DNA from: an uncultured Hyphomicrobiales bacterium
GTDB lineage: Bacteria; Pseudomonadota; Alphaproteobacteria; Rhizobiales; JAJFHR01
NCBI GenBank assembly: GCA_964549055.1
Contig: CAZJUF010000001.1
Span: 6,765-40,076 of the forward strand
Direction of reading: 5' to 3'
Length of the DNA stretch: 33,312 bases
Part shown: piece after piece, positions 1,631 to 27,709 of the stretch
Layout: every line of letters starts with the position of its first letter
Position numbering within the stretch: position 1 is the stretch's first letter
Program-made: the position numbers and the translations under genes
Notes under the pieces: generated by a model
Database searches by the model: none
Told to the model about the DNA's origin: nothing
Seen by the model: only the letters and a program-made list of their open reading frames with translations

Positions 1631-1634
1631 GATC

Positions 1635-2345: not shown

Positions 2346-2376
2346 GAAGTACCATGTGCTCCTTCAGCCGCCGTTT

Positions 2377-5548: not shown

Positions 5549-5552
5549 GATT

Positions 5553-6317: not shown

Positions 6318-6333
6318 AAGATTCCCACAACAT

Positions 6334-10309: not shown

Positions 10310-10353
10310 CGACTATGCCTCAATCTGCAATGAAAAAATGTCCACCGGGATAT

Positions 10354-11505: not shown

Positions 11506-11526
11506 AATAATCTCACCAATTCTCAA

Positions 11527-13431
11527 TCACGAATAAAGTTCGTCTGTCTCAGGCGGCAACCCTTTGGCAACACGATCTATCACCATCTCGAAACGACGCG
11601 CGCACACGTCGGCGGCAAACCATTTGAGCGCAAATGCTCGCGATTGCACAGACATTTCCTGCCGTTTTTCCGGGTCGTTTACCAGATCTCTCAACACACC
11701 TTCGATTGTCTGCTCAGTGGCATTCAGGGCGGGCGCTTCGGCAATGGTGCGAAGCTCGGGCATTCCCTCACCTTGCCCGGGCATCAGCCGTGTGATTACG
11801 GGTTTTCCCTGCATGAAGCTTTCACGCCCATTGGCACCAATCCGACCGTAGTTCAGTTGATCAACAACGATATCGGCCTGCGCCTTGTAGTAGCGGATCT
11901 TTTGGATAGGAAGTTTGGAGGCAAAAAACAGTTTAACGCCAAGCCCTTCGTCCTGCAACTTGGCAATTGCCGCCTCGATTGCAGTGCTACCCTTGATGTC
12001 ACGACCACCAGCGCGTCTGGCCTCAAGATTCCCTACCGCGTGGTAAATGAGGATTTCGCCTGGTTTACGCTCAATGCGCATTTCTTCCGGCACTTCGAGG
12101 TCCGGCGTCCAGTAATCCGGATCAAGGGTGGATACAATTGGCCCGCGGACAAATTTTGGACCAACGCGGTCTCCAACAGCCCAATCGCCCTCGATCCCGA
12201 TCCAGTCACAGATATCGTCCAGAGTATGTGCCCATGCCTGGTTTTTGGCGTCGCTACAAACATCGGGGCGGAGCTCCCAGACGCAGCGCCCGCAAACATT
12301 ATCGGAAATTTGCCTGATTGCCGATTGAGACGTGCCGTCAACGCAGCCACTCGCTGTATAACCAATGATGGTGCGATGGCGGCGAAGTTCCATAAAATCC
12401 CACGGAAATCTGGTTCTGTTTTTGGCGTTGTCATTGTTTTCATGAAAAAAACTGGGCCGATACTGACCGTAAAATTGCACGGCTCCAAAACGTTCCGGTA
12501 CGGTCTGTAGAAATTCACAAATCTGCCGGTGCCGGATTGCGGGATCGTCGTGATAAAGGTTGATATCTTCGCCAAAATAAAACTGCTGCTGCGCGCTACC
12601 CGGAGGCTCTACAGACACGGTAATCGCGTCCCATCCGCGTTTTTTTAACGCTGCGGCAAGCGTGTTGAAATGGTAGTAATTATTATGGAGAAATAACACG
12701 GATCGTGATTTTGGCTGGGCGGGCACCATCTTCGGCAACAGGTCTGCTGCATCGAAAGGCAGGGGCACACCTGTTTTAGTGCCTGCAAGCTGTGGCAGAT
12801 ATGCCGCCTGTCCATTCGCCATAAAATCGATAAGGTCGGGCTCCCGCTTTAGGGCATCCATAGTATCGTTGTAGAGGCGTTGCTCCGCTTCAGTGGTGTC
12901 CGGTTGCATCTCATCCATATGCAAAGTGGATTTCTCCAACTTCATCGCATCAAAAATAAGTCGCGCACCTTTGGGATACCGGCTGATAAATTCCAGTAGC
13001 TGCGGCTGATCTTCAGGTGGGCCAAGACGGCCTTGTACATCCAGACGCTGCAAGACAACCCGCTGAACCATGCCAGCGTTAAGATCGTTGCATATCGCTT
13101 CACCGGAAATGCCATTAAATCCTTCCGGTACCTTTCCACCTTCCCCGATTGCTACAAATCGCAGAGTTTCTTTTCGGCGCACACCGAAAACCCGATCTTC
13201 CGTTGAAAATGCTTGCTGCCAAAAAGGATCGTTCTTGACGCCTTCAAAAAATGCTTGGCGATGGGCCTCCAGCTCCTCATTCAATTTATTGTTGGAAATC
13301 TGTAACTCCAGCACTTCCATGCGAAGCTTCTCAAGCGACGTATTTACGAAGGTCCGCCAAACAAGGAATCTTCGTAGCAGGTTGAACTTCCTGCAGGTCA
13401 CACGAAATCGCTCAATCATCGAGTTAGTCAT
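11527..13431 (-). CDS. Large glycosyltransferase-like protein: N-terminal coiled coil plus unknown domain plus GT-B (GT1/GT4-like) C-terminal half
   Basis: 634 aa. A heptad-like stretch SLEKLRMEVLELQISNNKLNEELEAHRQ lies near the N-terminus. A Rossmann-like segment SVLFLHNNYYHFNTLAAALKKRGWD follows. The C-terminal segment ...GANGRESFMQGKPVITRL... resembles the donor-binding half of GT-B enzymes. Confidence 0.5.
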   Translation of the reverse strand: MTNSMIERFRVTCRKFNLLRRFLVWRTFVNTSLEKLRMEVLELQISNNKLNEELEAHRQAFFEGVKNDPFWQQAFSTEDRVFGVRRKETLRFVAIGEGGKVPEGFNGISGEAICNDLNAGMVQRVVLQRLDVQGRLGPPEDQPQLLEFISRYPKGARLIFDAMKLEKSTLHMDEMQPDTTEAEQRLYNDTMDALKREPDLIDFMANGQAAYLPQLAGTKTGVPLPFDAADLLPKMVPAQPKSRSVLFLHNNYYHFNTLAAALKKRGWDAITVSVEPPGSAQQQFYFGEDINLYHDDPAIRHRQICEFLQTVPERFGAVQFYGQYRPSFFHENNDNAKNRTRFPWDFMELRRHRTIIGYTASGCVDGTSQSAIRQISDNVCGRCVWELRPDVCSDAKNQAWAHTLDDICDWIGIEGDWAVGDRVGPKFVRGPIVSTLDPDYWTPDLEVPEEMRIERKPGEILIYHAVGNLEARRAGGRDIKGSTAIEAAIAKLQDEGLGVKLFFASKLPIQKIRYYKAQADIVVDQLNYGRIGANGRESFMQGKPVITRLMPGQGEGMPELRTIAEAPALNATEQTIEGVLRDLVNDPEKRQEMSVQSRAFALKWFAADVCARRFEMVIDRVAKGLPPETDELYS

Positions 13432-13463
13432 TTCGCCCCGGCAATCGTTTTTGGTTCATGTTA

Positions 13464-14432
13464 TCACCTCACAGCTCTGTCCGCCTGACGCCAGGCGATG
13501 AGTTGTTTGAGGCCGTCTTTCAAGGGGATTTTGGCCGTAAATCCAATCTCTTGTGTCGCGCGTTCAGGGCAGCCTATGCGATTGCGCACCAACGTTGCCG
13601 CACTGCGTGGGGCATATTGTATCTCCTGGTTACAGCCGGTCAATTGGCAGAGAATTTCAGCCAGCTCCTTGAGTGACGTTCGCGTGCCGGTGCCAACATT
13701 GTAGAACTGGTCGACAGTATCAGCGCGCAGGGCGCAAAGATTTGCACGCGCACAATCTTCGACCGCGACAAAATCAAAGGCTTCCGAACCATCGCCCAGA
13801 ATGGTTGGCCCTTCGCCACGGTCGATGGCATCCAGCATTTTCATGATGACGGCGATATAAGCACCCTTGTAGTCCTGGCGCGGCCCGTAAACATTCATAT
13901 ATCTGAGACCGGCAACATTGAGGCCGTAACGATGATGGAAGGCGCGTGCCATGGCTTCGCCGCAAATCTTGGTGGCACCATAAAAGTTTTTGTTATTGAA
14001 CGGATGGTCTTCGGTCATGGGTTCGGACACGGCATCGCCATAGACCGAAGCCGAGGAGGAATAAATCAGGCGCTTTACATCTTTGGCGACACAGGCTTCA
14101 AGCACATTGAACATACCGCGCACATTGACGTCGAATGCGGCGCGCGGATATTCGTGGCATTGCAGCAGCCACAATGCGGCCAGATGAAAAACGCCATCAG
14201 CACCTTCCAGCGCACTTTCGAGAACATCGCTTTGCAGGATGTCGCCACCCGCTTCAAAAATCTTCACCCGCGGATCACTCAGCGCGGCTGCAAGGTTTTC
14301 ATGCCGGCCACGAACGAAGTTGTCATAAATCAGTATCTCGCCAACATCGCTCGCAACCAGTTGATCGACAAGGTGTGATCCGATAAGGCCCGCACCGCCT
14401 ACCACCACTATTTTTTTACCTGTTATATCCAT
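13464..14432 (-). CDS. NAD-dependent nucleotide-sugar epimerase/dehydratase (extended SDR)
   Basis: 322 aa. Glycine-rich NAD motif VVVGGAGLIGSHLV, catalytic SSSASVYG and YGATKICGE (YxxxK). Confidence 0.85.
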   Translation of the reverse strand: MDITGKKIVVVGGAGLIGSHLVDQLVASDVGEILIYDNFVRGRHENLAAALSDPRVKIFEAGGDILQSDVLESALEGADGVFHLAALWLLQCHEYPRAAFDVNVRGMFNVLEACVAKDVKRLIYSSSASVYGDAVSEPMTEDHPFNNKNFYGATKICGEAMARAFHHRYGLNVAGLRYMNVYGPRQDYKGAYIAVIMKMLDAIDRGEGPTILGDGSEAFDFVAVEDCARANLCALRADTVDQFYNVGTGTRTSLKELAEILCQLTGCNQEIQYAPRSAATLVRNRIGCPERATQEIGFTAKIPLKDGLKQLIAWRQADRAVR

Positions 14433-14520
14433 GATGTTTCCTGCTCGTTACGGGCTCCACTGCCGAATGCAATTTTTTTGATAAATTTATAAACCACGAA
14501 GTGCGACCCAAAAGAATTTT

Positions 14521-15603
14521 TCATTCCAGTATCATATGATCACGAAAAACCAAATGCCTGAAATATTCGACTAACCCGGGAGAATAGCCTTCATCGACAT
14601 AGGAAAACTGTCGAAGACAGGTACTGGCTGGCCGGAAGAAGTTTTGCACCACCGTGCCGTCCGAATGTCGATATGTTCGCGGCAACTTTTCGATTAGCGC
14701 GACAATTTCTATATTGTTTTTATCCGCAGTGTAATTTTCCAACCGTAGTTGATCTGCTCCGATCGGGGTGCCTTTGGTGTCCGTAACCATTAGGGCAAGC
14801 CATGGATCGAAAATAACATATTGGTTCAACTCTTCTATCCAGATTTCAGCCGTACTGTGCCCATAGCTTATCAGATCTGGAATATGACGACCATAATTGA
14901 AGGCTTCAACGGCGCGGGCATTAAGGCCTTCCACGCCTTCAGATGCATGAAGAAATAAATCCCTCATACCCTGACACATAAGCGCGAATTCACCGTTTTG
15001 AACAATTTCAAGCTTGGCCTCGAGAGAATGTTGTAAAAAGTCGGAATAGCTTTTCGACGTCGGCCCCTGAACTACCGGTTGGCACCAGAGAAACTCCAGC
15101 AGCCCCGTTGCCATTTTCACTTCAGGAAACTTCGATCCACCCGCCGGTCTGATTTGCGGCAAAGATGGACGGCCTGCAAACTCCAGCGCATCAGCGCTAT
15201 ACAACGGACCGCCACAAACATTGATAGAACGTCGCCCAAGTATTGAATAACCGTCGGGTTTGCCGAAATCAAATTTCTGTTTGAGCCAATGTGCCGATTG
15301 CCTGATGAGTTCAAACCAGCTTTGGTCAGCGAACACAAAGATGGAATATTCATTATCAACCGGCTCGTTTTTGAGAGGGATTTTCAAAATACGTCTGTCC
15401 ATCGTCACGTCCGTGGCAAGATTGTTCAATTCATCCAAACTCAGTTGCAAAGGCACATTCTTCATATGGATAATTTTGATCGAACCCACTGATTTGTTGA
15501 AAGAGATTTCCAACGCTTCAGATGTTTGCGTAAATGCGACAATTGAGAGTGATTTTTTTGCAAATATTTTCTTTAACGACGCGATCAACACAATCAACCC
15601 CAA
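14521..15603 (-). CDS. Hypothetical protein with a possible transglutaminase-like Cys-His-Asp core
   Basis: 360-aa ORF in the operon, with visibly lower G+C than its neighbours. The segment ...ALMCQGMRDLFLHASEGVEGLNARAV...YGHSTAEIWIEELNQYVIFDPW... has the C...H...D spacing of transglutaminase-like cysteine-protease folds. The start is uncertain: TTG at 15603, first ATG at 15465. Confidence 0.45.
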   Translation of the reverse strand: MGLIVLIASLKKIFAKKSLSIVAFTQTSEALEISFNKSVGSIKIIHMKNVPLQLSLDELNNLATDVTMDRRILKIPLKNEPVDNEYSIFVFADQSWFELIRQSAHWLKQKFDFGKPDGYSILGRRSINVCGGPLYSADALEFAGRPSLPQIRPAGGSKFPEVKMATGLLEFLWCQPVVQGPTSKSYSDFLQHSLEAKLEIVQNGEFALMCQGMRDLFLHASEGVEGLNARAVEAFNYGRHIPDLISYGHSTAEIWIEELNQYVIFDPWLALMVTDTKGTPIGADQLRLENYTADKNNIEIVALIEKLPRTYRHSDGTVVQNFFRPASTCLRQFSYVDEGYSPGLVEYFRHLVFRDHMILE

Positions 15604-15648
15604 TTCGTTCGTGGTGGGCGCACAAAAATCACGCTGTGCTGTTCTTGC

Positions 15649-17562
15649 TCATGGTGCCATGCTGCGCCATTCAGCCGCCTTGTCGTGAAACGCCTGCTGC
15701 CACAGCTCGAGACTCAACAAGCCCCAGGTTTTGCGTGAAAAGCGGCTGTCGGCATTGAAACTCTCGAGAACCTTGTCAGAACGCATGAACGGACGGGCTT
15801 TGGCTGTTTGCGAGGAAAAAATATCGCGAACATAGTCCTTGAGCTCATTGCCATACCATTCTTTCAAAGGCACCGGGAACCCCATTTTGTCGCGCCGTGA
15901 CAGCAGTTTTTCCGGCAAAACGTCACTGAAGGCTGTTTTGAGCATATGCTTCATGTTGCCGCTTTCGAATTTTATGTCTGCGGGTACGGTGGCGGCGAAT
16001 TCGATCAGTGGATGATCCAGCATCGGCACCCGGCTTTCCAGACCATGGGCCATGCTCATACGATCTTCCACCTGCAACAGCGCTGGCAGCAGGCACTTGA
16101 AATCGAAATGCGTCATTTTATCAAAATAGGCTTCCTGGCTCACATTAGTGGTGGAATTAAAAATTCCTTCAAAGCGCTCAAACACACCTTCTTTATCAAG
16201 CCCGGTCCAGTCAACTTCGTCCTGCAGATCGTTGGAACGATCTATCAGGCGGAAATAGCGCTGGTCGAGATCTCCAAACAGGCCTTCCTGCCACAGCATT
16301 TGCATCATTGGTTTATATTCACGCAAAACTCCGAGATTGGGCACAATTGATTCAATCGTGACAATGTAATTGCCATTTCTGTAGGTGCCATCGAGTGCCG
16401 CTTTTAGGGATTGTTCCAGGTAAGCCACCAGATAGCGGGCATAGCCGCCGAAAATCTCGTCACCGCCTTGCCCGCCGAGCACCACTTTAACGTGGCGCGC
16501 GGCAAGTTCAGAAACCATATATTGAGGAAATGAACCCGGACCGGCAACCGGATAGTCTAGGTGATATATGACTTTTTGAATGTTGCTTTCGAAATCACTG
16601 GCGGTTATGTCGCATTGAAAAAGCTCGCCGTTAGCCGCATCGGCGGCCATTTCGGCATATGGGCTTTCATCATAGCCGTTATAATCAGTGAACTTGCCAT
16701 GGAAAAACTGGCGGTTTTGCGAGTTATGCCTGGCCGCCAGGATTGAAGTCAGGCTGGAATCAATGCCGCCCGACATATAACCGCCAACAGGAACATCTGC
16801 GCGCAAATGAACATCAATTGAATCATTCATGAGTTCGCGCAGGCGGTTGTAGAAATAGCGCGGTGAATGATCCCAGTCGATATTATAGTTCACATCCCAA
16901 TAGCGTTGAATGCTCATGTGGTTGTTTTCGATCACCAGCCGGTGGCCGGGCATCAATTGCTTAACGCCCTTGAACAAGGTGAGATCATCGACTGAGTACT
17001 GGAAAGTCAGGTATTGCGCCAGCGCCTCAGGCTCGGTGTCGATCTCCGGCAAAAACGGCATTAGCGCCTTGGGCTCGGAGGCAAAGTAAAAAACACCATC
17101 CACAGTCGCATAATAAAATGGCTTGATGCCAAAACGGTCGCGCGCGGCAATCAGGCGTTGGCGTTTCTCATCCCAAATGGCGAACGCGAACATACCACGC
17201 AGATGGGTCGTAAAATCGTCACCGTGGCGCTCATAAGCAGCGAGAATGGTTTCGGTGTCGGAGGATCCCTTGAATTGCCAGCCGTCTTTTAGTGCCTCAC
17301 GCAATTCGAGATAATTGTAAACTTCGCCGTTATGGGAGATGACGCAGCCGTTGGGTCCGCTCATCGGCTGGGCACCGGTATCCGACAGGTCAATGATTGA
17401 CAATCGCCGGTGCGCCAGACCCGCCTGATCTTTATCCGCACACCACACCCCCTCACCATCGGGGCCGCGATGAGCAATAATCTCGCCCATGACTTGCAGC
17501 TTTCGCTGCAGGTGCTTGATCGGCTGACCGCTGATACTGACTATTCCGGCAATTCCACACAT
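15649..17562 (-). CDS. Asparagine synthase (glutamine-hydrolysing)-family amidotransferase, copy 2
   Basis: The ORF track gives 15649..17586. I trimmed the start to ATG 17562 so that the protein begins MCGIAGIV (the catalytic Cys must be residue 2). It has HRGPDG and a PP-loop region GGYMSGGIDSSLT. Confidence 0.85.
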   Translation of the reverse strand: MCGIAGIVSISGQPIKHLQRKLQVMGEIIAHRGPDGEGVWCADKDQAGLAHRRLSIIDLSDTGAQPMSGPNGCVISHNGEVYNYLELREALKDGWQFKGSSDTETILAAYERHGDDFTTHLRGMFAFAIWDEKRQRLIAARDRFGIKPFYYATVDGVFYFASEPKALMPFLPEIDTEPEALAQYLTFQYSVDDLTLFKGVKQLMPGHRLVIENNHMSIQRYWDVNYNIDWDHSPRYFYNRLRELMNDSIDVHLRADVPVGGYMSGGIDSSLTSILAARHNSQNRQFFHGKFTDYNGYDESPYAEMAADAANGELFQCDITASDFESNIQKVIYHLDYPVAGPGSFPQYMVSELAARHVKVVLGGQGGDEIFGGYARYLVAYLEQSLKAALDGTYRNGNYIVTIESIVPNLGVLREYKPMMQMLWQEGLFGDLDQRYFRLIDRSNDLQDEVDWTGLDKEGVFERFEGIFNSTTNVSQEAYFDKMTHFDFKCLLPALLQVEDRMSMAHGLESRVPMLDHPLIEFAATVPADIKFESGNMKHMLKTAFSDVLPEKLLSRRDKMGFPVPLKEWYGNELKDYVRDIFSSQTAKARPFMRSDKVLESFNADSRFSRKTWGLLSLELWQQAFHDKAAEWRSMAP

Positions 17563-17710
17563 TTCGCAGAAGGCTCCCTTTCGCAAGTCGGTTAGACCTG
17601 TAACATTAACAAATTTTTGGTGCTGATTTCATGGCTTGAATGATGGTACGGCACACTGTCTTAAGTTTCCGTGCGGATGTGAAATATCACTATTGGGAAA
17701 AACCACTTTT

Positions 17711-17834: not shown

Positions 17835-18329
17835 TCAGGCTTCGACCACTTTTTTTGACGACATACGAACGCGCACTTTTCTACCCAGAATTTCCATCAG
17901 CGTCCAAATTCGGTCCTTTTCATCGATCTTGATAATCTGGCCAATTGCATCATGAAATGCGGTGCCATAACACCGGATTTTCTGACCCGGACTGAAACGC
18001 TCATGAGGTGCGGGAGCTTCCAGTTTACCGGCATTTTCCAGCGATTTTAAATCGGCAACAAATGCATCGGGCACAGGACTGAGGCGGTCTGAAAACATCA
18101 CGACAGCACGCACACCGCGAGAATAAACAATCGGACGCCACTGGTCGCAAGCCGGATCAATGCTGACAAACAGATAACCGGGGAAAAATGGCCGTAATAC
18201 CGTTGTGGTTTTGCGGGCATGGCGCCGCGTTGTCACAACCCTGGGGCAATAGCATTCAAATCCCTGACGCTCAATATTGGCAACAGCCAAATCCTCGGCG
18301 TTGGCGTGAGTGTTAACGGCTATCCACAT
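17835..18329 (-). CDS. NusG-family paralog (RfaH/UpxY-like operon-specific antiterminator)
   Basis: 164 aa. MWIAVNTHANAEDLAVANIERQGFECYCPRV...RPFFPGYLFVSIDP... is an NGN-domain pattern, and the C-terminal KOW-like region is GQKIRCYGTAFHDAIGQIIKIDEKDRIWTLMEILGRKVRV. AGGAG lies upstream of ATG 18329. Confidence 0.8.
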   Translation of the reverse strand: MWIAVNTHANAEDLAVANIERQGFECYCPRVVTTRRHARKTTTVLRPFFPGYLFVSIDPACDQWRPIVYSRGVRAVVMFSDRLSPVPDAFVADLKSLENAGKLEAPAPHERFSPGQKIRCYGTAFHDAIGQIIKIDEKDRIWTLMEILGRKVRVRMSSKKVVEA

Positions 18330-18343
18330 GACTTCGATGGCTC

Positions 18344-18958
18344 CTAGATAAATGCCGGGATCAGCGCTTGGGAATGATGCAGGTTGAGTTTTGTCAAAAG
18401 CGCTTCAAGATCACATTTTTCAGGCAGCTTGATGTCCGGACCTGTGCCTACTATGGCATCCACACGCCCGCCCGGAACGCAGGCCAAAACATCTTCAGCT
18501 GTTGATTTCACCGGCAAACCGGCGCAGGTATTGTTTTTGGCAGCGGCATCAAATACGCAATGGGCGGTGACATTATCAATTCGTGACAACACCAGCATGG
18601 CCAATTCGGCAAGTTCACTGTCGCCAACCAGAATAATGTTCTTCCAGTCATTGGCGAGGCAAAGGTTGAACAATGCCTCATATTGCTGACGCCCCACTCG
18701 AAAAATATCGAATGAAGTGCTCAGATAATCAGCTGTTAGCCGGGATTTTTCCGTAAAGCCTTCAGGCGTGAGGTAATAAAGATAGCGTTTGACGGGCACC
18801 TGACTAAGTTTAACCAGCCCCTTTTTGACGCAACGTTTGAGATGCCAGTTGATGGTGCCTACCGAAACACTGAGAACTTCGGAAAGCTTGCGCTGGGAAA
18901 CTCCGGGATCCCTTTCAATCTCAACCAGCAACTCTCGCACTATTCGTTCTTCAGACAT
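18344..18958 (-). CDS. MarR-type winged-helix regulator of the EPS-associated class, with a C-terminal Rossmann-like extension
   Basis: The sequence ...EERIVRELLVEIERDPGVSQRKLSEVLSVSVGTINWHLKRCVKKGLVKLSQVPVKRYLYYLTPEGFTEKSRL matches my memory of EPS-associated MarR regulators. The ORF track starts at GTG 18961; ATG 18958 is preferred. Confidence 0.75.
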   Translation of the reverse strand: MSEERIVRELLVEIERDPGVSQRKLSEVLSVSVGTINWHLKRCVKKGLVKLSQVPVKRYLYYLTPEGFTEKSRLTADYLSTSFDIFRVGRQQYEALFNLCLANDWKNIILVGDSELAELAMLVLSRIDNVTAHCVFDAAAKNNTCAGLPVKSTAEDVLACVPGGRVDAIVGTGPDIKLPEKCDLEALLTKLNLHHSQALIPAFI

Positions 18959-18980
18959 CACACTTCACTATAATTTTTAC

Positions 18981-19111: not shown

Positions 19112-20158
19112 TCATATTACCGCGCCTAGAACGTCGGTGATGCGGCGACCGGCATTGCCGTCACCATAAAGCTCAGTTGCAGGCACCTGGCCTGTTGCAG
19201 CCCAATTAACCGCATCGGCAATCTTAAGGGGGTCAGCCCCGGTCAGGCGATTAACGCCGGTTTCAACAAGCTCGGTCCACTCAGTCTCATCGCGCAACGT
19301 GACACAGCGTTTGCCGAGGAAATAAGCCTCTTTTTGCAGGCCACCAGAATCCGTCAACACAAAGGATGCCCCGCTTACCATAGCGATCATCTCCAGATAT
19401 GATACCGGCTCACAGAATTCAACATTTTGTGGCGCTTCCAGGCCATGGGTGACAAGAGCGTTACGCGTGCGCGGATGGATGGGCCATCTTACCGGCAACT
19501 CAGCTGTGGCAATGCCGCGAAGAATTCCAGCCAACCGGGCCGGGTCATCGGTGTTTTCGGCTCTGTGAACTGTCAAGACGGCGTAGGGTTTTTTATTCTC
19601 ATTTATAATCCGGTTGCGATAATAAAGCACAGCATCATACATAACATCGCCGACCATATGGACACCGCTGGTAATGCCTTCACGCGCCAGATTATCTGTG
19701 GCCGCCACGGATGGTACGAACAAAAGCGTTGAAACATGGTCGGTCAAAACACGATTGATTTCTTCGGGCATCCGCCGGTTATAACTTCTCAATCCGGCTT
19801 CCACATGGGCAATCGGGATATTGAGCTTTGCGGCGGCCAGCGCACCGGCCAAAGTGGAGTTGGTATCGCCATAGACCAGCACCAGATCGGGTTTGCGCGC
19901 GTCGATTTCACGCTCGCACAACTCCAGCATACGCCCGGTTGCCTGACCATGCTTGCCCCCGGCGATCTCGAGATTGACCGCAGGCTTTGGTATATCCAGT
20001 TCGTCGAAGAATACATCGCTCATATTGGCGTCATAATGCTGGCCGGTGTGGATGATGTCCTCGGTGATGGCACCGTCATCCAGGTTGGCAATCGCGCGGC
20101 TGACTACAGCACATTTGATAAATTGGGGACGCGCTCCAACAAAGCTTACTATTTTCAT
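19112..20158 (-). CDS. wecB: Non-hydrolysing UDP-N-acetylhexosamine 2-epimerase (WecB/WbpI family)
   Basis: 348 aa. MKIVSFVGARPQFIKCAVVSRAI...HTGQHYDANMSDVFFDELDIP...VLVYGDTNSTLAGALAAAKLNIPIAHVEAGLRSYNRRMPEEINRVLTDH is the classic family signature. In this context it is probably the WbpI-type step acting on UDP-GlcNAc3NAcA. Confidence 0.85.
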   Translation of the reverse strand: MKIVSFVGARPQFIKCAVVSRAIANLDDGAITEDIIHTGQHYDANMSDVFFDELDIPKPAVNLEIAGGKHGQATGRMLELCEREIDARKPDLVLVYGDTNSTLAGALAAAKLNIPIAHVEAGLRSYNRRMPEEINRVLTDHVSTLLFVPSVAATDNLAREGITSGVHMVGDVMYDAVLYYRNRIINENKKPYAVLTVHRAENTDDPARLAGILRGIATAELPVRWPIHPRTRNALVTHGLEAPQNVEFCEPVSYLEMIAMVSGASFVLTDSGGLQKEAYFLGKRCVTLRDETEWTELVETGVNRLTGADPLKIADAVNWAATGQVPATELYGDGNAGRRITDVLGAVI

Positions 20159-20332
20159 ACAACCTCATGATTTCCGGGTCAGGGCCCAGGCTTGCTATGG
20201 CGGCAAATTGTCGAATTGTCAAATATACTGCTGGCATTTTGGCGCTGGTTAAAAGTTTTAAGTGATTAATCCCCGGCCTCGCATCGTGTCTTAGGATGCA
20301 ATTTTTCTGATTGCAGTAGCGAGAGCAAAGTA

Positions 20333-21403
20333 ATGAACGATACCCCCAACCTGAAGATGCCGAGCATCGAAGCAGCCCAGGCGCAAAAACACGTCACCCA
20401 CAACGAGGCCTTGCGGGTTCTCGATGCCATTGTACAACTCAGTGTCAACGACCGTGACCTGACAGCCGCACCTTTATCACCTGTTGATGGTGCCCGCTAT
20501 ATTGTTGCAGCTGCCGCCACCGGTACATGGGCTGGCAAAGATCAACAGATTGCCGCCTGGCAGGACAACGCATGGAGCTATTATGTGCCGCAAGAAGGCT
20601 GGTTGGCCTGGGTGGCGGACGAGGACAAATTGCTGGCATGGGATGGCACAGTGTGGAGTGAAGTTTCCAGTGGCGGTGGTGGTGGCTCTGCAAATCTGAA
20701 CCCGGCTGATGGCGGGTTGATCGGCATAAATGCAACCGCCAGTACGACCAACCGATTGTCGGTATCTTCACCTGCCACGCTGTTTAATCACGAAGGAAAT
20801 GGCCACCAGCAGAAGATAAACAAGAACACGACTGGCGATACCGCCAGCCAGCTTTATCAAAGTGGCTTTTCAGGGCGCGCCGAGATCGGCCTTACCGGAG
20901 ATGATGATTTTCATTTTAAAGTAAGCCCTGATGGCACCAGTTGGTATGAGGCCATTAATATTGACCGCAACAACGGCATGTCATCGCTATTGATCCCGGC
21001 GGTGCAGGTGGCAAAGTCCTCGGCGCAATCCATCGCCAATAGCACGACGACGACCTTAACCTGGGACACAGAGAACTTGGACACTGATGCCATGCACGAT
21101 AATGCGATCAATAATTCAAGGCTGACCGCCAGAAAGGCCGGGAAATATGTTGTTTTCATGAACATTGTCTTTGCGGCCAACAACAGCGGTGTCAGGCAAC
21201 TTATCATTCGAAAAAACGGTACATTCACTTTGTGGACACACATTTACCCGAATGCAGGAGCGGGGGAAGATCAGACATTTACCGCAACAATCGTGGACCT
21301 TGCCGCTAATGAATATATTGAAGGACAAGTGTGGCACAACGGCGGAAGCAGCCTTGATGTCACCATTATCAGCCTCATGACCATGTACAAAGCCGGAGCT
21401 TAA
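20333..21403 (+). CDS. DUF2793-domain tail-fibre-like protein with Gly linker and C1q/TNF-like C-terminal domain
   Basis: 356 aa. The N-terminus ...MPSIEAAQAQKHVTHNEALRVLDAIVQLSV...GARYIV...WAGKDQQIAAWQDNAWSYYVPQEGWLAWV... is the DUF2793 pattern. It is followed by a GGGGG linker and a conserved middle part (...NRLSVSSPATLFNHEGNGHQQKINKN...SGRAEIGLTGDDDFHFKVSPDGTSW...). The last ~130 aa (...AGKYVVFMNIVFAANNSGVRQLIIRKNG...ANEYIEGQVWHNGGSSLDV...) match the C1q jelly-roll pattern. Confidence 0.75.
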   Translation: MNDTPNLKMPSIEAAQAQKHVTHNEALRVLDAIVQLSVNDRDLTAAPLSPVDGARYIVAAAATGTWAGKDQQIAAWQDNAWSYYVPQEGWLAWVADEDKLLAWDGTVWSEVSSGGGGGSANLNPADGGLIGINATASTTNRLSVSSPATLFNHEGNGHQQKINKNTTGDTASQLYQSGFSGRAEIGLTGDDDFHFKVSPDGTSWYEAINIDRNNGMSSLLIPAVQVAKSSAQSIANSTTTTLTWDTENLDTDAMHDNAINNSRLTARKAGKYVVFMNIVFAANNSGVRQLIIRKNGTFTLWTHIYPNAGAGEDQTFTATIVDLAANEYIEGQVWHNGGSSLDVTIISLMTMYKAGA

Positions 21404-21407
21404 AATA

Positions 21408-21878
21408 ATGAATATCGCTGAAGCTATCCAATATCTATATCCAGATGCGCGACCATTGATTGACTTTGAAGTCACGGATGAAAGTGACGGCAAGGGGCCG
21501 CATATAAGTAAATGGAACATTTTGCTTAAAAACGGCAAAAAAGCACCAATGCCAGGCTTGGACGAACTGACGGCGGCATATGCCGCTTCGCAACTGCCAA
21601 CGGAAAAAGATTTTCGCACTGAAGCGCAACGACGCATTCTTTCGGTTTTTCCGGACTGGAAACAACGCAATAACCTGTCGCGCATGCTGGAACTCTACCG
21701 CAAGGGTGAGGCCAATTGGTCAACCGGTGAACGGGCTGAGGTTGCGATTATTGATGCAAACTGGAGCTGGCTCAAATCGGTACGGGAAATGTCTGACGAG
21801 CTAACACTTAAATCACCGATTGATTTTACCCAAGACAGGCACTGGCCTGCCCGACCAAAGTCAAATGCATCGGTATGA
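21408..21878 (+). CDS. Phage-like protein with XkdW-like N-terminal domain (possible fibre accessory/assembly protein)
   Basis: 156 aa, starting 5 nt after the fibre gene stop. The N-terminus AIQYLYPDARPLIDFEVTDESDGKGPHISKWNILL...PMPGLDEL follows the XkdW pattern (YP.A...DF.L.DDG.G..I..WN....P.P....L). In PBSX, xkdW likewise sits just after the fibre gene xkdV (from memory). Confidence 0.45.
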   Translation: MNIAEAIQYLYPDARPLIDFEVTDESDGKGPHISKWNILLKNGKKAPMPGLDELTAAYAASQLPTEKDFRTEAQRRILSVFPDWKQRNNLSRMLELYRKGEANWSTGERAEVAIIDANWSWLKSVREMSDELTLKSPIDFTQDRHWPARPKSNASV

Positions 21879-21897: not shown

Positions 21898-23118
21898 TTA
21901 AAATGATTGCAGAATATCGCTGGTTTGCCGGGCTCTATGAGCATAGGTATGGTTTTCCATGACCAGCTGATGGGCCTGATCGACAATTTTTTGCCAGTGG
22001 GATTTGTCCTTAAGTTTTTCCACCACTTCTGAAATATTGGAAAAATCAGGTTCCAGTGAGATGTAATGTTCGTCCGCCGTCAGAATATCATTATACCGTC
22101 CGGGAAACATAACCTGACAGGTTCGCGTGCCGATGGCATCGAAATTGCGCGATGATATTGCTTTTGAATATACCGGGCATTTCTTTGCGGTTTTGAAAAA
22201 ACGCTGATGGATATCGTCAAAATCAAGTTTTTCATCTTCAAAAACGCCATATTTGATCGGGCCTTTTTTGATCGCATAAATCAGCGGAGACTTTACAACC
22301 GCAGGCAAATAGCGAACCAGGCGGCGCAGTCTGCTTTTTTCACCGATCACCAGACCCCCGCGCTTTTGTGTGGCATAGGTGTGGATCTGTTTTACCAGAT
22401 CATCATCAGGCGACAGGTACCAGCTGCCGGTTTCAGTGGAAAGGACAGCCTTGCAACTGCCAAGGAACCCTCCCCATTTTTCCGGCGTAAACCGATGGGT
22501 TGTACTGATGTCATGCGACAGGCCAAGATCGGGACAATGTTCAATAAAATAATCTATTATGCGATTGCGATCATCATCTCCCAGATGGGGTGGATAGCGA
22601 TAGCTGCGCATGCCAATGTCGATGGACCGGTCTTCATAAGGTGTTTTGGCGTTAAATGCATCGGGATTGAGGGCATGGGGAATGGACACAATTTTTGCAT
22701 CACACCTTTGGTAAACATACCGACCGGCTTCTTCAAGCAACTGGGTTGCAATAACATCTGTGCGGATGTTTTTCAGCATCTCGATCTTATTCGACAATGG
22801 TTGATAAGGTGAGTTAAATTCATTGCCCACAAAGGCTAAAAGTATCGGGCGCTTGCGGTCCATCAAAACAGATTTCAATGGTGCAAGATAATCAAGCGTG
22901 TCGCCGGTTGCACTGTGCAACAATATTATCAGATCGAACTCTTCAATGCAGTTTGACAGATCAGCCGGTTCAATCTTCATCAGATTTAAAACCTGACATT
23001 TGAATAAGCTGGAGTTTGCGTAGGCATTTACCCAATCATTATAATATGACGCCCGGTGATCATATTGCAGGGTGAGAATAAGGGTACGAATTTGACTGCT
23101 GTGGTCAACGTCTCCCAT
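21898..23118 (-). CDS. CgeB-like / Glyco_trans_1_2-type glycosyltransferase (low G+C)
   Basis: 406 aa. The C-terminal half (...SSRNFDAIGTRTCQVMFPGRYNDILTADEHYISLEPDFSNISEVVEKLKD...MENHTYAHRARQ) resembles CgeB-family GT-B proteins. It is convergent with the fibre cassette; only 19 bp separate the stops. Confidence 0.55.
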   Translation of the reverse strand: MGDVDHSSQIRTLILTLQYDHRASYYNDWVNAYANSSLFKCQVLNLMKIEPADLSNCIEEFDLIILLHSATGDTLDYLAPLKSVLMDRKRPILLAFVGNEFNSPYQPLSNKIEMLKNIRTDVIATQLLEEAGRYVYQRCDAKIVSIPHALNPDAFNAKTPYEDRSIDIGMRSYRYPPHLGDDDRNRIIDYFIEHCPDLGLSHDISTTHRFTPEKWGGFLGSCKAVLSTETGSWYLSPDDDLVKQIHTYATQKRGGLVIGEKSRLRRLVRYLPAVVKSPLIYAIKKGPIKYGVFEDEKLDFDDIHQRFFKTAKKCPVYSKAISSRNFDAIGTRTCQVMFPGRYNDILTADEHYISLEPDFSNISEVVEKLKDKSHWQKIVDQAHQLVMENHTYAHRARQTSDILQSF

Positions 23119-23448
23119 CGTCGAAAATATCCTTGTTATTGGCGAAGCTGTCTTTTGGCCAGCATTATAAGTGCTAAATCTACCCGACTTTCAACAAGCT
23201 TTTCTCTCCTGATGTTGATTGGTGGGGGGAATTGATTATGAAACAACATGATGAGCAAAATGCTCTCTTGGCTCAAGTCACGGTTTGTCCCCTTTTATTC
23301 GACGACAGACAGGTTTGATTGTGCTTGTAACCTGTGTGCTTGCTTTTGGGGGAGTTGCCATCTATGGACGCCCCATTCAAGAGGCACATCTATCTATCAT
23401 TGTTCAGAAAGTTGGCGCAGTTCGTGCCTGGTTGATCTCGTTCAGAAA

Positions 23449-23465
23449 ATGAACATTTTAACAAA
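23449..23465. promoter_or_regulatory. Second copy of the TGTTCAT-AAA-ATGAACA motif (cGTTCAgAAAATGAACA, 15 of 17 identical)
   Basis: It is located in the 518-bp divergent intergenic region between the CgeB-like GT gene and the wbpB-like operon. A left half-site copy, TGTTCAGAAA, also occurs at 23401-23410. Confidence 0.3.
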
Positions 23466-23569
23466 TTCCAAGAATATTTTCTTAGACTGCGCCTCTGTAA
23501 TTTGATACAACCCGCTAACATTTATTTCTGGTTGTATAATCAGTATCTTGAAAAGCGCTCGCGGTCTTC

Positions 23570-23600
23570 TTGAAACAAATCGCCAAAATGAATTTATAGT
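23570..23600 (+). promoter_or_regulatory. Candidate sigma-70-type promoter for the plus-strand wbpB-D-E-A operon
   Basis: TTGAAA (23570-23575), then a 17-nt spacer, then TTTATA (23593-23598, overlapping TATAGT at 23595-23600). It lies about 37 nt upstream of ATG 23637. An alternative perfect TATAAT sits at 23535-23540 without a good -35. Confidence 0.25.
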
Positions 23601-23636
23601 GCGCATTTTTCACACCGGAATACATGGTAAAACCAC

Positions 23637-24629
23637 ATGAATGATCGTCATAAAATATCACTTGCCGTCATCGGCTGCGGCCACTGGGGAAAAAACCTGG
23701 TGCGCAATTTTCACACACTCGGCGCGCTCGCAGCATTTTCTGATCCCGATCCCGAGGTGTGCAAACGCATGCAAGAAGTCTGTGGTGTTCCTGCCAGGAG
23801 CGTCGATGATATTCTGGCCGATGACAACATAGACGCCGTTGTTATCGCCGTGCCTGCGGAGCTCCACCACCAACTGGCAATGAAATCTCTTGATGCGGAT
23901 AAGCACGTTTTTGTTGAAAAGCCGATTACTCTTACACTGGAAGATGCACAAGAGCTTTGCGACAGGGCGGACAAGCTAAACAAGACCCTGATGGTTGGTC
24001 ACCTCCTGCAATATCATCCAGCTTTCCTTAAACTGAAGGACATGGTTAGAAGCGGTCAGATCGGTAAAATCCGCTATCTTTATTCGCGCCGCCTCAACAT
24101 CGGCAAGCTTCGTGTCCATGAAAATGTACTGTGGAGTTTCGCTCCCCATGATATTTCCATGATCCTTGCACTGGCGGGTCACGAGCCCGACCAGATCCAC
24201 GGTTTTGCAGGTAATTTCCTGCAAAGCTCGATCAGCGATTTTGCCACTGTTCAAATGGAGTTTCCCGATGGCATCAAGGCGCACATCGAGGTGTCATGGC
24301 TCAACCCGTTCAAGGAACAGCGTCTCGTTGTTGTCGGCGACGAGGGCATGATCGAGTTCGATGATCAGGCGGACTGGCCAGAAAAACTGAAACTCTATAA
24401 TCATCGGGCCGAAATCAAGGACGGGTTGCCGGTGCTGGAGACAGCTGAGGCCAGGGCGATCGAGGTCGAACCGGGTGAGCCATTGTTAAACGAGTGTGAG
24501 CATTTTCTCAAATTCATTCAGACAGGTGAAAAACCTTATACTGATGGTCGTGAAGCAATGGCGGTTCTGCGCGTATTGCGCGCCGGTGATGCGTCACGTG
24601 AGGGTTGGAAAGGGGGCCCCGTCGAATGA
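23637..24629 (+). CDS. wbpB: Gfo/Idh/MocA oxidoreductase, WbpB/WlbA-like (UDP-GlcNAcA 3-dehydrogenase)
   Basis: 330 aa. Rossmann N-terminus [19 protein letters not shown], then ...[20 protein letters not shown].... The gene order oxidoreductase, acetyltransferase, aminotransferase matches wlbA-wlbB-wlbC. ATGA overlap with the next gene at 24626-24629. Confidence 0.7.
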
Positions 24630-25210
24630 ACGAAAAAACCAGTTATAAAGCCCATGAAAGTGCTTACGTTGATGATGGTTGCAAGATCGGCGATGGCACG
24701 AAGATCTGGCATTTCAGCCATATTCTGTCTGGCACTACCATTGGAGAGAACTGTTCATTTGGCCAAAATGTCATGGTTGGGCCTGATGTTTCCATCGGCG
24801 ATAATTGCAAAATCCAGAACAATGTCAGTATCTATAAAGGTGTGACCTTGGAACAAGGTGTGTTCTGCGGACCGTCTTGTGTGTTCACCAATGTGTTGAC
24901 GCCGCGTTCAGAAGTAGAGCGCAAGGATGAGTTCGCCTCCACTTTGGTAAAACAAGGGGTGACCATCGGTGCCAATGCCACCATCGTTTGTGGGCATACG
25001 CTCGGGCGTTATTGCACTGTTGGCGCAGGAGCCGTGATTACGAAAGATGTACCCGACCATGCTTTGATGGTTGGAGTGCCGGCCCGGCGCGTTGGTTGGG
25101 TTAGTCGCAGTGGTGATTTAATGAAAGACGACCTTGTCTGCCCCCGCACCAACGAGCGATATCGCGAAACGGAAACGGGGTTAGTGCTGATTGAGGATGA
25201 AAAAGTATGA
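24626..25210 (+). CDS. wbpD: Left-handed beta-helix N-acetyltransferase, WbpD/WlbB-like
   Basis: The start was trimmed to ATG 24626 ([97 protein letters not shown]...). The hexapeptide repeats and overall pattern are typical of WlbB/WbpD. Confidence 0.85.
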
Positions 25211-26331
25211 AGAATATTCAATTCATTGATTTGCAGGCGCAACGCGCCTACCTGGGGTCCAGGGTTGACGATGCCATAAGCCGGGTGCTGGAGCATGGCC
25301 GTTACATTATGGGTCCGGAAATCAAAATTCTGGAGGATCAGCTTAGCGATTTCAGTGGAGTTGAACGGACGGTTTCATGTTCAAACGGCAGCGATGCCCT
25401 GTTGTTGCCGCTTTTAGCCTGGGAAATTGGTCGAGGGGATGCGGTGTTCGTGCCCAGCTTCACCTTCGCTGCGACGGCAGAAATGGTGGCGTTTGCAGGT
25501 GCTACACCGGTGTTTGTCGATATTCTGCCCGACACCTTCAATATGGACCCGGATCATCTGGAACAGGCTATCAGGGAAGTAAAGGCGAAAAATGAACTCA
25601 CTCCCAAAGCGGTGATTGTGGTCGACCTGTTTGGTCAAATTGCTAATTATCCAGCAATAAAAAAACTCAGCGACGAGCATGGCCTCAAACTGATTTCGGA
25701 TGCTGCCCAAGGCTTTGGCGCAACACTTGACGGCAATCAGGCAGGCGACTTCGCTGATTGTGTCACCACCAGCTTTTTCCCGGCTAAACCCCTTGGCTGT
25801 TATGGCGATGGCGGTGCGGTTCTCACCAATGATCATGAACTTGCCGATATCATCGAGAGCCTGCGGGTGCACGGCAAGGGGCGTGATAAATATGACAATG
25901 TGCGCATCGGCATGAACGGTCGGCTGGACACTCTTCAAGCTGCGATTTTGATCGAAAAACTATCTATTTTCGCCGAAGAAATCGAAAAACGCAACAAAGT
26001 GGCAGAGCGGTATAACAAGGCTCTGATACAGGTTGTGGCAACTCCCCGGGTCATGGAAGGTGCCGTTTCCACATGGGCGCAATATACGCTAAAACTTGAC
26101 AACCGCGATGAAGTCCAGGCAAAGCTCAAGGAAAGTGGCATTCCCACTGCTGTTTATTATCCAAAACCGCTTCATCAGCAGACCGCCTATAAGGATTATC
26201 CTGTCGCAGGCAGCGGCCTGCCTGTTTCCGAGCGGTTGTCTGCTGAAGTACTCAGCCTGCCGATGCATCCCTATCTGGATGAGCAAACCCAGGATTATGT
26301 TATTGAAACCGTCAAAAACACCTTAGGGTAA
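25207..26331 (+). CDS. wbpE: DegT-family aminotransferase, WbpE/WlbC-like
   Basis: 374 aa. [51 protein letters not shown]...[10 protein letters not shown]...[30 protein letters not shown] overlap with wbpD at 25207-25210. Confidence 0.85.
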
Positions 26332-26350
26332 GAGTAGAGCTTTTTACATT

Positions 26351-27709
26351 ATGGAACAAAAAAATCCCTTGAATAATTCAAGCCGTCAATTTATCGAAAA
26401 ACTTAAAAATGGCGATGCCGTTATCGCCATCATCGGTCTGGGCTATGTCGGCCTGCCGCTGATCCTCGGTTTTAATAATGTCGGTTTTAACACTCTCGGT
26501 TTGGATATCAATCAGGAGCTGATCGATCAGCTAATGGCAGGTAAAAGCCGGATCGCCCATATCCCTTCAAGTAAAGTCAAGGCTATGGTCGCAACCGGAC
26601 ATTTTGAGGCGACAACCGATTTTTCGCAAATTAGCCGCGCCGATGCCATTTTAATTTGCGTCCCGACACCGCTCAATCAATACCGGGAACCAGATCTGTC
26701 GTTCATCAAGATTACCGCCAACAATATTGCACCACATATCAAGGCTGGACAGTTGGTCATTTTGGAATCAACAACCTATCCAGGAACAACACGCGAAATA
26801 TTACTGCCGATTTTAGAACAAGGCAGTGGCCTGAAGGGTGACAAGGATTTTTTCGTCGCCTTTTCGCCCGAGCGTGAAGACCCGGCCAATCCCGACTTTG
26901 ACACGACTACTATTCCCAAAGTTGTTGGTGCAGCGACCCCTGAGGGAGAGGAGATGGCCGCCGCGCTGTATGAGACGCTGATAACGCGCGTTGTTCGCGT
27001 CTCCAGCCCCGATACAGCCGAAGCCGTCAAACTAACTGAAAACATTTTTCGTGCCGTGAATATCGCTCTGGTAAATGAGTTGAAGCTGATCTATGACGAT
27101 ATGGGAATTGACGTGTGGGAGGTGATTGACGCTGCGGCGACAAAACCTTTTGGTTTCATGCCATTTTATCCTGGGCCGGGACTTGGCGGACACTGCATAC
27201 CCATTGATCCGTTTTATCTAACCTGGAAGGCGCGGCAATTTGGACGCCACACCCGATTTATCGAGCTTGCCGGCGAGATCAATCAGGATATGCCCAGACA
27301 TGTGATCAGCAAACTGGCCGTTGCTCTTAGCAAGCAGCAGAAAAAGGCGCTCAATGGCGCTAAAATACTGATTGTCGGCATTGCTTATAAAAGAAATGTC
27401 GATGATATGCGCGAAAGCCCAGCCCTGCTCCTCATGGAACTTTTGGCAGAACATGGTGCCAAATTTGACTATCACGATCCTTTTATCAGCATCATTCCGC
27501 CAACTCGTGAACATGCGCAGTTAGCTGGCATGAAATCCATCGAGTGGACGAAACAGAATATCAGCCAGTATGATGCAGCCCTCATTGTCACCGACCATGA
27601 TAATGTCGACTGGCAAACACTGGTGGACAGTGCAGCGCTGATCATTGATACGCGTAACGCACTAAAGGACGTGCAGACGGCCGATAACAACAAGATCATT
27701 AAGGCCTAG
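26351..27709 (+). CDS. wbpA: UDP-N-acetylhexosamine 6-dehydrogenase (WbpA/TviB/WecC family)
   Basis: 452 aa. Motifs read: VIAIIGLGYVGLPL, ...ILICVPTPL..., ESTTYPGTTREIL, PFYPGPGLGGHCIPIDPFYLTWKA and VGIAYKRNVDDMRESPA. Substrate assignment (GlcNAc versus ManNAc) cannot be settled by eye. Confidence 0.8.
   Translation: MEQKNPLNNSSRQFIEKLKNGDAVIAIIGLGYVGLPLILGFNNVGFNTLGLDINQELIDQLMAGKSRIAHIPSSKVKAMVATGHFEATTDFSQISRADAILICVPTPLNQYREPDLSFIKITANNIAPHIKAGQLVILESTTYPGTTREILLPILEQGSGLKGDKDFFVAFSPEREDPANPDFDTTTIPKVVGAATPEGEEMAAALYETLITRVVRVSSPDTAEAVKLTENIFRAVNIALVNELKLIYDDMGIDVWEVIDAAATKPFGFMPFYPGPGLGGHCIPIDPFYLTWKARQFGRHTRFIELAGEINQDMPRHVISKLAVALSKQQKKALNGAKILIVGIAYKRNVDDMRESPALLLMELLAEHGAKFDYHDPFISIIPPTREHAQLAGMKSIEWTKQNISQYDAALIVTDHDNVDWQTLVDSAALIIDTRNALKDVQTADNNKIIKA

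Follow-up and report, generated by a model that had tools for sequence, protein, structure and literature searches.

The window analysed here is a stretch of 33,312 nucleotides from an uncultured Hyphomicrobiales bacterium (contig CAZJUF010000001.1, positions 6,765 to 40,076), and all coordinates below refer to it. Beside its surface-glycan genes lies a plus-strand pair of genes, called here gene 1 and gene 2 and together the cassette. Phage-like particles known as gene transfer agents (GTAs) shuttle host DNA between cells, and gene 1 probably encodes the tail fibre of such a particle. A first-pass annotation, made from the letters alone, had described a two-gene unit; both open reading frames (ORFs) were confirmed at exactly the positions given there, and the four parts that it had distinguished in gene 1 were all recovered. 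The parts of the cassette are as follows (aa, amino acids).

20333..21403, plus strand: gene 1, DUF2793 protein read as a tail fibre of the Rcc00171 type, 356 aa; ORF confirmed.
20399..20656, plus strand: DUF2793 domain, aa 23–108; Pfam, E 2.6e-33.
20672..20686, plus strand: Gly5 hinge (GGGGG), aa 114–118; read from the sequence.
20687..20977, plus strand: conserved middle region (shaft), aa 119–215; invariant columns and PHROGs.
20990..21400, plus strand: C1q/TNF-like jelly-roll tip, aa 220–356, presumed receptor-binding head; predicted model and Foldseek.
21408..21878, plus strand: gene 2, putative fibre-linked accessory protein, 156 aa; ORF confirmed.
21414–21593, plus strand: XkdW-like domain of gene 2, aa 3–62; Pfam.
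21594–21875, plus strand: helical domain of gene 2, aa 63 to the C-terminus.

The N-terminal DUF2793 domain of gene 1 (aa 23–108) scored 114.2 bits against a Pfam cut-off of 27, and is presumed to be part of the module that docks on the baseplate (megatron). The Gly5 hinge (pLDDT below 50, AlphaFold2) has as its counterpart in the aligned homologues a Gly-rich stretch of variable length; the middle region (aa ~119–215) has many columns that are invariant in an alignment of 22 homologues, and is covered by PHROGs 13925, 15388 and 25093. The best PDB sequence match of gene 1 was chain S of 8gtc (aa 4–148, E 1.9e-12), from the cryo-EM study of roseophage R4C, which has a baseplate made up of hub, megatron and fibre proteins with homologues in the Rhodobacter capsulatus GTA, RcGTA (PMC10276861). 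The N-terminus of gene 1 is homologous to a fibre that has been shown by structure on a megatron-type baseplate, one that R4C has in common with RcGTA (PMC10276861; the R4C fibre was deposited as 'Ribonuclease III'). Fibre genes of the R4C and RDJL Phi 1 type differ from gene 1 in lying inside phage genomes, directly after the megatron gene, and in their tips; identity is ~35%.

The tip (aa ~220–356) was modelled as a monomer with pLDDT ~90 (AlphaFold2) as a ten-strand jelly roll and superposed in Foldseek on C1QL1/2/3, the Caprin-2 C1q domain, collagen X NC1 and ligands of the TNF family, with a target-normalised TM score of ~0.8 and an rmsd of ~2.2 Å; for C1QL1–3, Caprin-2 and collagen X NC1 the score was 0.78–0.83 and the rmsd 2.2–3.0 Å. 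The C1q/TNF jelly-roll fold was confirmed at the level of the predicted model. The structure search also returned many phage proteins, namely 'C1q domain' proteins, tail fibres and the 'Ribonuclease III' of RDJL Phi 1. The 'C1q domain containing protein' class of marine Caudovirales and the knob of the phi812 central spike (9eul) share the jelly roll of the last ~135 aa of gene 1, and phage tips of this kind stand, as in gene 1, at the fibre's distal end; they differ in being virion proteins of replicating phages and are only 10–27% identical to gene 1 in sequence. A search of a word-indexed protein database with the tip alone gave no match although full-length homologues exist there, a sensitivity quirk that is uninformative on the tip.

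The closest described system is Rcc00171 of RcGTA. The first-pass annotation was correct in stating that DUF2793 is the domain of this fibre and that its gene lies away from the main GTA cluster; Rcc00171 is essential for gene transfer by RcGTA, its gene stands directly 3' of genes for extracellular polysaccharide, and its homologues are often misannotated as 'ribonuclease III' (PMC5026251). The fibre gene and the head-spike genes of RcGTA both adjoin polysaccharide genes (Hynes et al., PMC5026251), and the capsule dependence that the annotation also named agrees with the report that the RcGTA tail fibre binds the capsule (Alim et al., PMC10218006). Judged from the published description of Rcc00171 and not from direct sequence comparison, gene 1 resembles it in its N-terminal DUF2793 domain, in its place outside a head–tail cluster and beside extracellular-polysaccharide genes, in evolving fast relative to the structural cluster and, presumably, in being a receptor-binding protein for polysaccharide. 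The C-terminal part of Rcc00171 is predicted to be a tailspike of the beta-helix type (PMC5026251), whereas the tip of gene 1 is a compact C1q/TNF jelly roll; the host of Rcc00171 belongs to the Rhodobacterales and that of gene 1 is close to Hyphomicrobiales; an XkdW-domain partner follows gene 1, and none is described for RcGTA in the literature cited here.

The fibre family is large (more than 5,800 protein matches). Its N-terminal ~220 aa are 60–70% identical across Hyphomicrobium, Filomicrobium and other Hyphomicrobiales, whereas the C-termini can be interchanged. In reference genomes, 80 fibre loci were found by a scan. A megatron-like gene was found 5' of the fibre gene in 5 of 66 loci (L038, L040, L044, L072, L083), adjacent to it in four and fragmented in L083; among 63 distant loci, the gene directly 5' of the fibre carried Phage-tail_3 and Rcc01698_C in four, three of which also had GTA_TIM, these three being the domains of the megatron. 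One of these loci (L044), from a related Hyphomicrobiaceae genome, has a complete cluster of the RcGTA type directly before the fibre gene (Pfam): capsid, connector, head completion, tail completion, tube, GTA-gp10, a 194-aa protein, DUF2460, hub, NlpC/P60 and megatron, which is the gene order of RcGTA; the fibre encoded there shares 59% identity with gene 1 over aa 1–219. Sequenced phages matched gene 1 only over aa 1–~219 and at no more than 54% identity; the matches were siphophages of Rhodobacter, Paracoccus and Roseobacter, in which the gene directly follows a megatron gene named 'GTA TIM-barrel', and no sequenced phage has the tip of gene 1. In a published survey, a DUF2793 fibre gene was present in 225 of 293 GTA-bearing alphaproteobacteria and co-evolved with the GTA genes (Kogay et al., PMC10883770).

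The order epimerase, fibre, partner and glycosyltransferase-like (GT-like) gene is kept in three independent relatives (L001/L011, L002/L003 and L006; fibres 82–85% identical), at a synonymous divergence (dS) of ~0.4–0.6. A cassette 82% identical to that of the window is carried by GCA_024278055.1. The ratio of non-synonymous to synonymous divergence (dN/dS) was 0.061 for fibre aa 1–215, likewise 0.061 for the epimerase, 0.12 for the fibre tip and 0.20–0.28 for gene 2. The dS of the tip was 1.03 as against 0.4–0.6 for its neighbours; in a sliding comparison nucleotide identity fell from ~88% to 60–77% only across 20991–21390, that is, the tip-coding segment, and did so only in comparisons that involve the window, a pattern consistent with the tip having been exchanged for that of a diverged allele. 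The two genes of the cassette have thus long been resident and are under purifying selection, and only the tip-coding segment has been replaced. A recent insertion and a prophage remnant were both rejected on synteny, composition and dN/dS: the cassette stands at the same place in diverged relatives, with no integrase, tRNA or other phage gene beside it and no shift in GC content. The earlier description of the cassette as 'inserted' was accordingly given up.

The same annotation had placed the cassette inside a glycan pathway, between the epimerase gene and the remaining genes. That placement was not borne out in the relatives: to the right of the GT-like gene there are genes for a response regulator and FGase in L001 and L006, and in L002 a mobile element with genes for a serine recombinase, a ParB-methylase and DUF5681, while the wbpB/D/E/A-like block found there in the window is specific to it. 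Because the relatives differ at this point, the cassette lies in them at the edge of a conserved locus, not between the halves of one pathway.

An association of fibre genes with glycan genes was found across the family. ORFs in 66 distant loci were labelled with a panel consisting of the sugar enzymes of the window, GT4 and rmlB/rmlD-like genes, so that the shares below are lower bounds.

Directly adjacent to the fibre gene: 11.9% of ORFs with a panel glycan label.
Positions 2–3 from the fibre gene: 7.4%.
Positions 4–6 from the fibre gene: 2.7%.
More than 6 genes from the fibre gene: 1.6%.

Adjacent positions against those more than 6 genes away gave an odds ratio of 8.6 (p = 1e-5), an effect size that is approximate, the control being internal to the same loci and the loci being phylogenetically related; the enrichment stayed significant after one repeated arrangement had been collapsed (p = 3e-4), and aggregated Pfam scans of the immediate neighbours agreed with it. 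A panel gene lay within 6 kb of the fibre gene in 24 of the 66 loci and directly beside it in 13. Homologues of the window's epimerase, the neighbour whose linkage to the fibre gene persists, are next to the fibre gene in L012, L020 and L051; L020 and L051 also have homologues of the window's GT-like gene beside the fibre gene. A glycan operon in L093 contains, in its own direction, a fibre gene with a C1q tip. Glycan linkage is thus a property of the fibre family, and the contexts of the fibre gene in relatives are non-random, with an enrichment that decays with distance; the random placement in relatives that the annotation had named as a refuting outcome was not what was seen. Separately, a second conserved arrangement of a fibre gene beside glycan genes was seen in a Hyphomicrobium clade (L025, L029, L030, L034, L062, L063), where the fibre gene stands between pnp (polynucleotide phosphorylase) and rmlB/rmlD-like genes.

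The reading preferred for gene 1 is that of an off-cluster tail fibre belonging to an RcGTA-like GTA, the counterpart of Rcc00171, with a conserved N-terminus for docking and a C1q head for binding surface glycan; a probability of roughly two in three is given to this reading. The N-terminal ~215 aa (DUF2793 domain, Gly hinge and shaft) would dock, presumably as a trimer, on the fibre-binding domain of the baseplate megatron, and the C1q/TNF-like head would bind the surface polysaccharide of recipient cells; the likely ligand is a glycan of the diamino-uronic-acid type made by the surrounding ABC-transporter-dependent locus. Several results weigh against the proposal. Among the 33 kb of the window there is not one structural gene of a GTA, and that the organism has a GTA cluster is an assumption. 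No CtrA box (TTAA-N7-TTAA or TTAACCAT) lies upstream of gene 1, TTAA-N7-TTAA occurs nowhere in the window, and none of 63 fibre upstream regions has a full or half box. The Pfam C1q model (PF00386) gave no match on gene 1 at E ≤ 1; it does match some homologues of gene 1 (P0048, P0096, P0106, P0117), and since it misses gene 1 the C1q likeness of the tip is one of fold and not of membership in the sequence family. Gene 2 had no tblastn match in 50,697 phage genomes, its model had no Foldseek match among viral structures at E ≤ 0.001, and it is without a characterised homologue. Finally, the tip does not simply follow the locus: a 634-aa protein of the glycan operon is 91.5% identical in the window and L002, and the tips only 70%.

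The same N-terminal module occurs in bona fide phages of Rhodobacter and Paracoccus, in RDJL-type phages and in R4C, additional rcc00171 homologues lie inside prophage regions (Hynes et al., PMC5026251), and one metagenome-assembled genome holds two fibre loci (L016 and L033); gene 1 might then serve some other particle encoded elsewhere, such as a siphophage prophage related to RcGTA, a tailocin or a satellite, as a spare or alternative receptor-binding protein. This is considered unlikely. At least three diverged relatives keep the gene in the same place and have no prophage gene nearby; the 58–70% identity of the N-terminus across Hyphomicrobiales is in keeping with docking on a conserved partner that is passed down vertically; no phage match exceeds 54% identity, and the tip is in no phage. 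Still less probable is a gene pair domesticated as a particle-independent glycan-binding lectin or adhesin, for example in cell–cell adhesion or in organising the glycan. C1q-like heads are general ligand-binding modules, the gene stands among glycan genes in the window and in L093, and no particle genes are close by; but gene 1 begins MNDTPNLKMPSIEAAQAQKH, with no apparent N-terminal signal peptide (judged by eye), the strongest constraint falls on the N-terminal module for docking on the baseplate (dN/dS 0.061), superfluous in a free lectin, and the same N-terminus is found in fibres attached to the GTA clusters of relatives.

Isolation of the cassette from any other phage gene, together with the variable junction right of the GT-like gene and the mobile element there in L002, would also suit an inert remnant of a decayed prophage, that is, two functionless orphan tail genes. 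The intact reading frames under purifying selection (dN/dS 0.06–0.28 at dS ~0.4–1.0), the highly conserved upstream region, the retained synteny, and GC content and dS in line with the neighbouring genes all speak against decay; this explanation is disfavoured and has only a very slight chance of being right. With the GTA fibre retained as the preferred explanation, the observation of the first-pass annotation was confirmed, its GTA lead was well supported and the interpretation attached to it partly supported.

The possibility that fibre and glycan locus form a self-recognition module, raised in the first-pass annotation, is not new; the idea is already in the RcGTA literature (PMC5026251, PMC10883770), where fibre genes beside polysaccharide genes, capsule binding and kin-restricted exchange are known, and polysaccharide receptors have been proposed as a means of restricting GTA delivery to kin (Kogay et al., PMC10883770). 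The family-wide enrichment of glycan genes beside fibre genes is apparently undocumented beyond R. capsulatus and is worth pursuing. An evolved linkage, in which GTA fibre genes of the Hyphomicrobiales favour glycan loci so that specificity and receptor are co-inherited and co-exchanged as a kin-recognition module, with the gene 2 family as a dedicated accessory, is put forward tentatively and is rather doubtful at present. GTAs are thought to persist as their benefits reach kin, receptor specificity being one proposed restriction; if the linkage holds, its order-wide occurrence would be a genomic signature for this idea. The large family of 'DUF2793 hypothetical proteins', some of them misnamed 'ribonuclease III', can now be annotated as GTA or phage fibres with swappable tips, and a small unannotated partner family is flagged directly 3' of some fibre genes.

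Co-variation of the tip with the glycan locus, which the first-pass annotation had suggested looking for, was rejected in the form of co-variation with the 634-aa glycan protein by the comparison of the window with L002: in this clade the tip changed with no matching change in the most variable glycan gene. The window is the sole member of the clade with wbpB/D/E/A-like genes adjacent (four genomes compared), and four genomes are too few to decide on tip–locus matching. No model of Pfam or NCBIfam matches the 634-aa protein itself (11527–13431, minus strand). Its gene varies more than any other among the syntenic relatives (68–92% aa identity, dS 1.17), and divergence is particularly high over the first ~40 aa. 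As a further observation on fibre number, the two DUF2793 fibre loci of the metagenome-assembled genome JAJRQA01 (Dive100_bin10.29), L016 and L033, encode fibres with different tips (490 and 508 aa), and both are near sugar-pathway or ABC-transporter genes.

Gene 2 starts 4 bp past gene 1. Its XkdW-like domain, predicted in the first-pass annotation, was found by Pfam (E 2.6e-13, 49.9 bits as against a cut-off of 24.6), and PDB 2hg7 (XkdW of PBSX) matched gene 2 at E 0.002. The likeness to XkdW of Bacillus subtilis PBSX (PF09636, 2hg7), a gene among tail genes, lies in the N-terminal ~60 aa. A profile hidden Markov model (HMM) was built from gene 2 and three syntenic homologues; with it the family was found directly 3' of the fibre gene in ~8 additional distinct loci, including the P0018 and P0035 loci, whose tips resemble that of gene 1. 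In PBSX, too, the XkdW gene follows the fibre gene; the arrangement claimed by analogy with PBSX stands for the cassette and for these further loci, and it does not extend to the fibre family at large, as only a minority of DUF2793 fibres have an XkdW partner. All fibres with the tip type of gene 1 have the partner; the converse, that the partner goes with one tip type only, does not hold strictly and was rejected, since six partner-bearing loci carry other tips.

An exhaustive search gave 776 cluster representatives of the gene 2 family, mostly of 110–200 aa. Matches fall on aa ~60–150, in the helical C-terminal part, more frequently than on the XkdW domain, so that the conserved part of the family is this helical domain, unlike XkdW (PF09636); the helical part has no Pfam or PHROG model, and PHROGs gave no meaningful match for gene 2 or nine relatives. 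The function of XkdW is not established; in the XkdW-like gp25 of Bacillus phage Sam46, whose C-terminal part is helical like that of gene 2, mutations in the C-terminal coiled coil change the plaque type, and a role in tail assembly was proposed in this, the only study of such a protein (PMC8190038). Most likely gene 2 is an accessory of the fibre, acting in its assembly or as a subunit associated with it, as its position, the 4-bp spacing and purifying selection suggest; this role is the weakest step of the explanation. The gap being only 4 bp, gene 2 is probably co-transcribed and translationally coupled with gene 1. In one family member (P0126, 201 aa) the initial ~108 aa of gene 2 are continued by a segment like a CoA-transferase (PF01144); a frameshift or a chimeric gene call, on a metagenome contig, is the probable cause.

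The features upstream of the cassette and the genes on either side of it are as follows.

20159..20332, no strand: divergent intergenic region, presumed promoter and 5' untranslated region (5' UTR) of the cassette; conservation.
20206..20220, plus strand: direct repeat AATTGTC-G-AATTGTC, possible operator; occurs once in the window.
20297..20315, plus strand: inverted repeat TGCAAT-N7-ATTGCA, candidate operator or 5' UTR hairpin; unique in the window.
19112..20158, minus strand: gene for a wecB-type non-hydrolysing UDP-GlcNAc 2-epimerase, divergent from gene 1; Pfam, and NCBIfam wecB at 286 bits against a cut-off of 210.
21898..23118, minus strand: GT-like gene of 406 aa, convergent with gene 2; weak match to Pfam Glyco_trans_1_2.

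The divergent intergenic region showed 93% column identity across four relatives, whose fibre proteins are 82–85% identical; no match to the sigma-70 consensus was found in it. The inverted repeat ends 18 bp 5' of the ATG of gene 1 (0.03 chance matches expected in the window) and is fully conserved, at the same position, in all close relatives; the direct repeat is near-invariant in relatives, with one variable base. Both repeats occur in the close clade only, with no copy in any other locus, and no regulatory motif common to the cassette and the glycan operons was found. CtrA-type regulation, which the first-pass annotation had proposed to look for, is unsupported, as neither the window nor the 63 fibre upstream regions yielded a box; the check covered CtrA boxes only, and indirect control, for example by a GafA-like factor, lies outside it. 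With no CtrA box there is no visible regulatory link to a GTA. An ops-like GGCGGCAAATTG at ~20199–20210 agrees with the RfaH ops consensus at 8 of its 10 defined positions; it was not counted because ~0.14 chance matches are expected in the region by a rough calculation.

Pfam and NCBIfam scans covered all ORFs of the window of at least 120 aa; apart from the cassette these are glycan-pathway, transporter and regulator genes only, which upholds the earlier statement that the 33 kb hold no other phage gene. No integrase, recombinase or other phage gene was among these ORFs, flanking att-type repeats not having been searched for, and no tRNA gene lies in the window. The GC content of the cassette (0.48–0.52) is that of its flanks, with no compositional break. 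Between the stop of gene 2 and that of the convergent GT-like gene there are 19 bp, without any terminator-like site, as had been noted before.

A long minus-strand operon (692–17586) carries formyltransferases, a WbmS-like deacetylase, an ABC-2 permease with two ATPases, DegT aminotransferases, two amidotransferases of the asparagine-synthase type and an epimerase of the short-chain dehydrogenase/reductase class; beyond the GT-like gene, WbpB-, WbpD-, WbpE- and WbpA-like genes follow on the plus strand (23637–27709). By analogy with the Wbp pathway of Pseudomonas and the Wbm pathway of Bordetella, the enzymes encoded at 692–11526 (minus strand) and 23637–27709 (plus strand) point to a polymer of 2,3-diamino uronic acids with amide or formyl groups; the set behind this assignment comprises the WbpA/B/D/E-like enzymes, the wecB-type epimerase, the two AsnB-type amidotransferases, two formyltransferases and the WbmS-like deacetylase. 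At the head of the operon (17835–18961, minus strand) are a NusG paralogue of the RfaH/UpxY type (below NCBIfam cut-offs) and a winged-helix regulator of the MarR_EPS type, which by analogy with the capsule loci of Bacteroides suggests antitermination specific to the locus. Between the GT-like gene and the wbpB/D/E/A-like genes there is a non-coding gap of 518 bp (23119–23636); together with the GT-like gene it has the lowest GC content of the window, 0.435–0.45.

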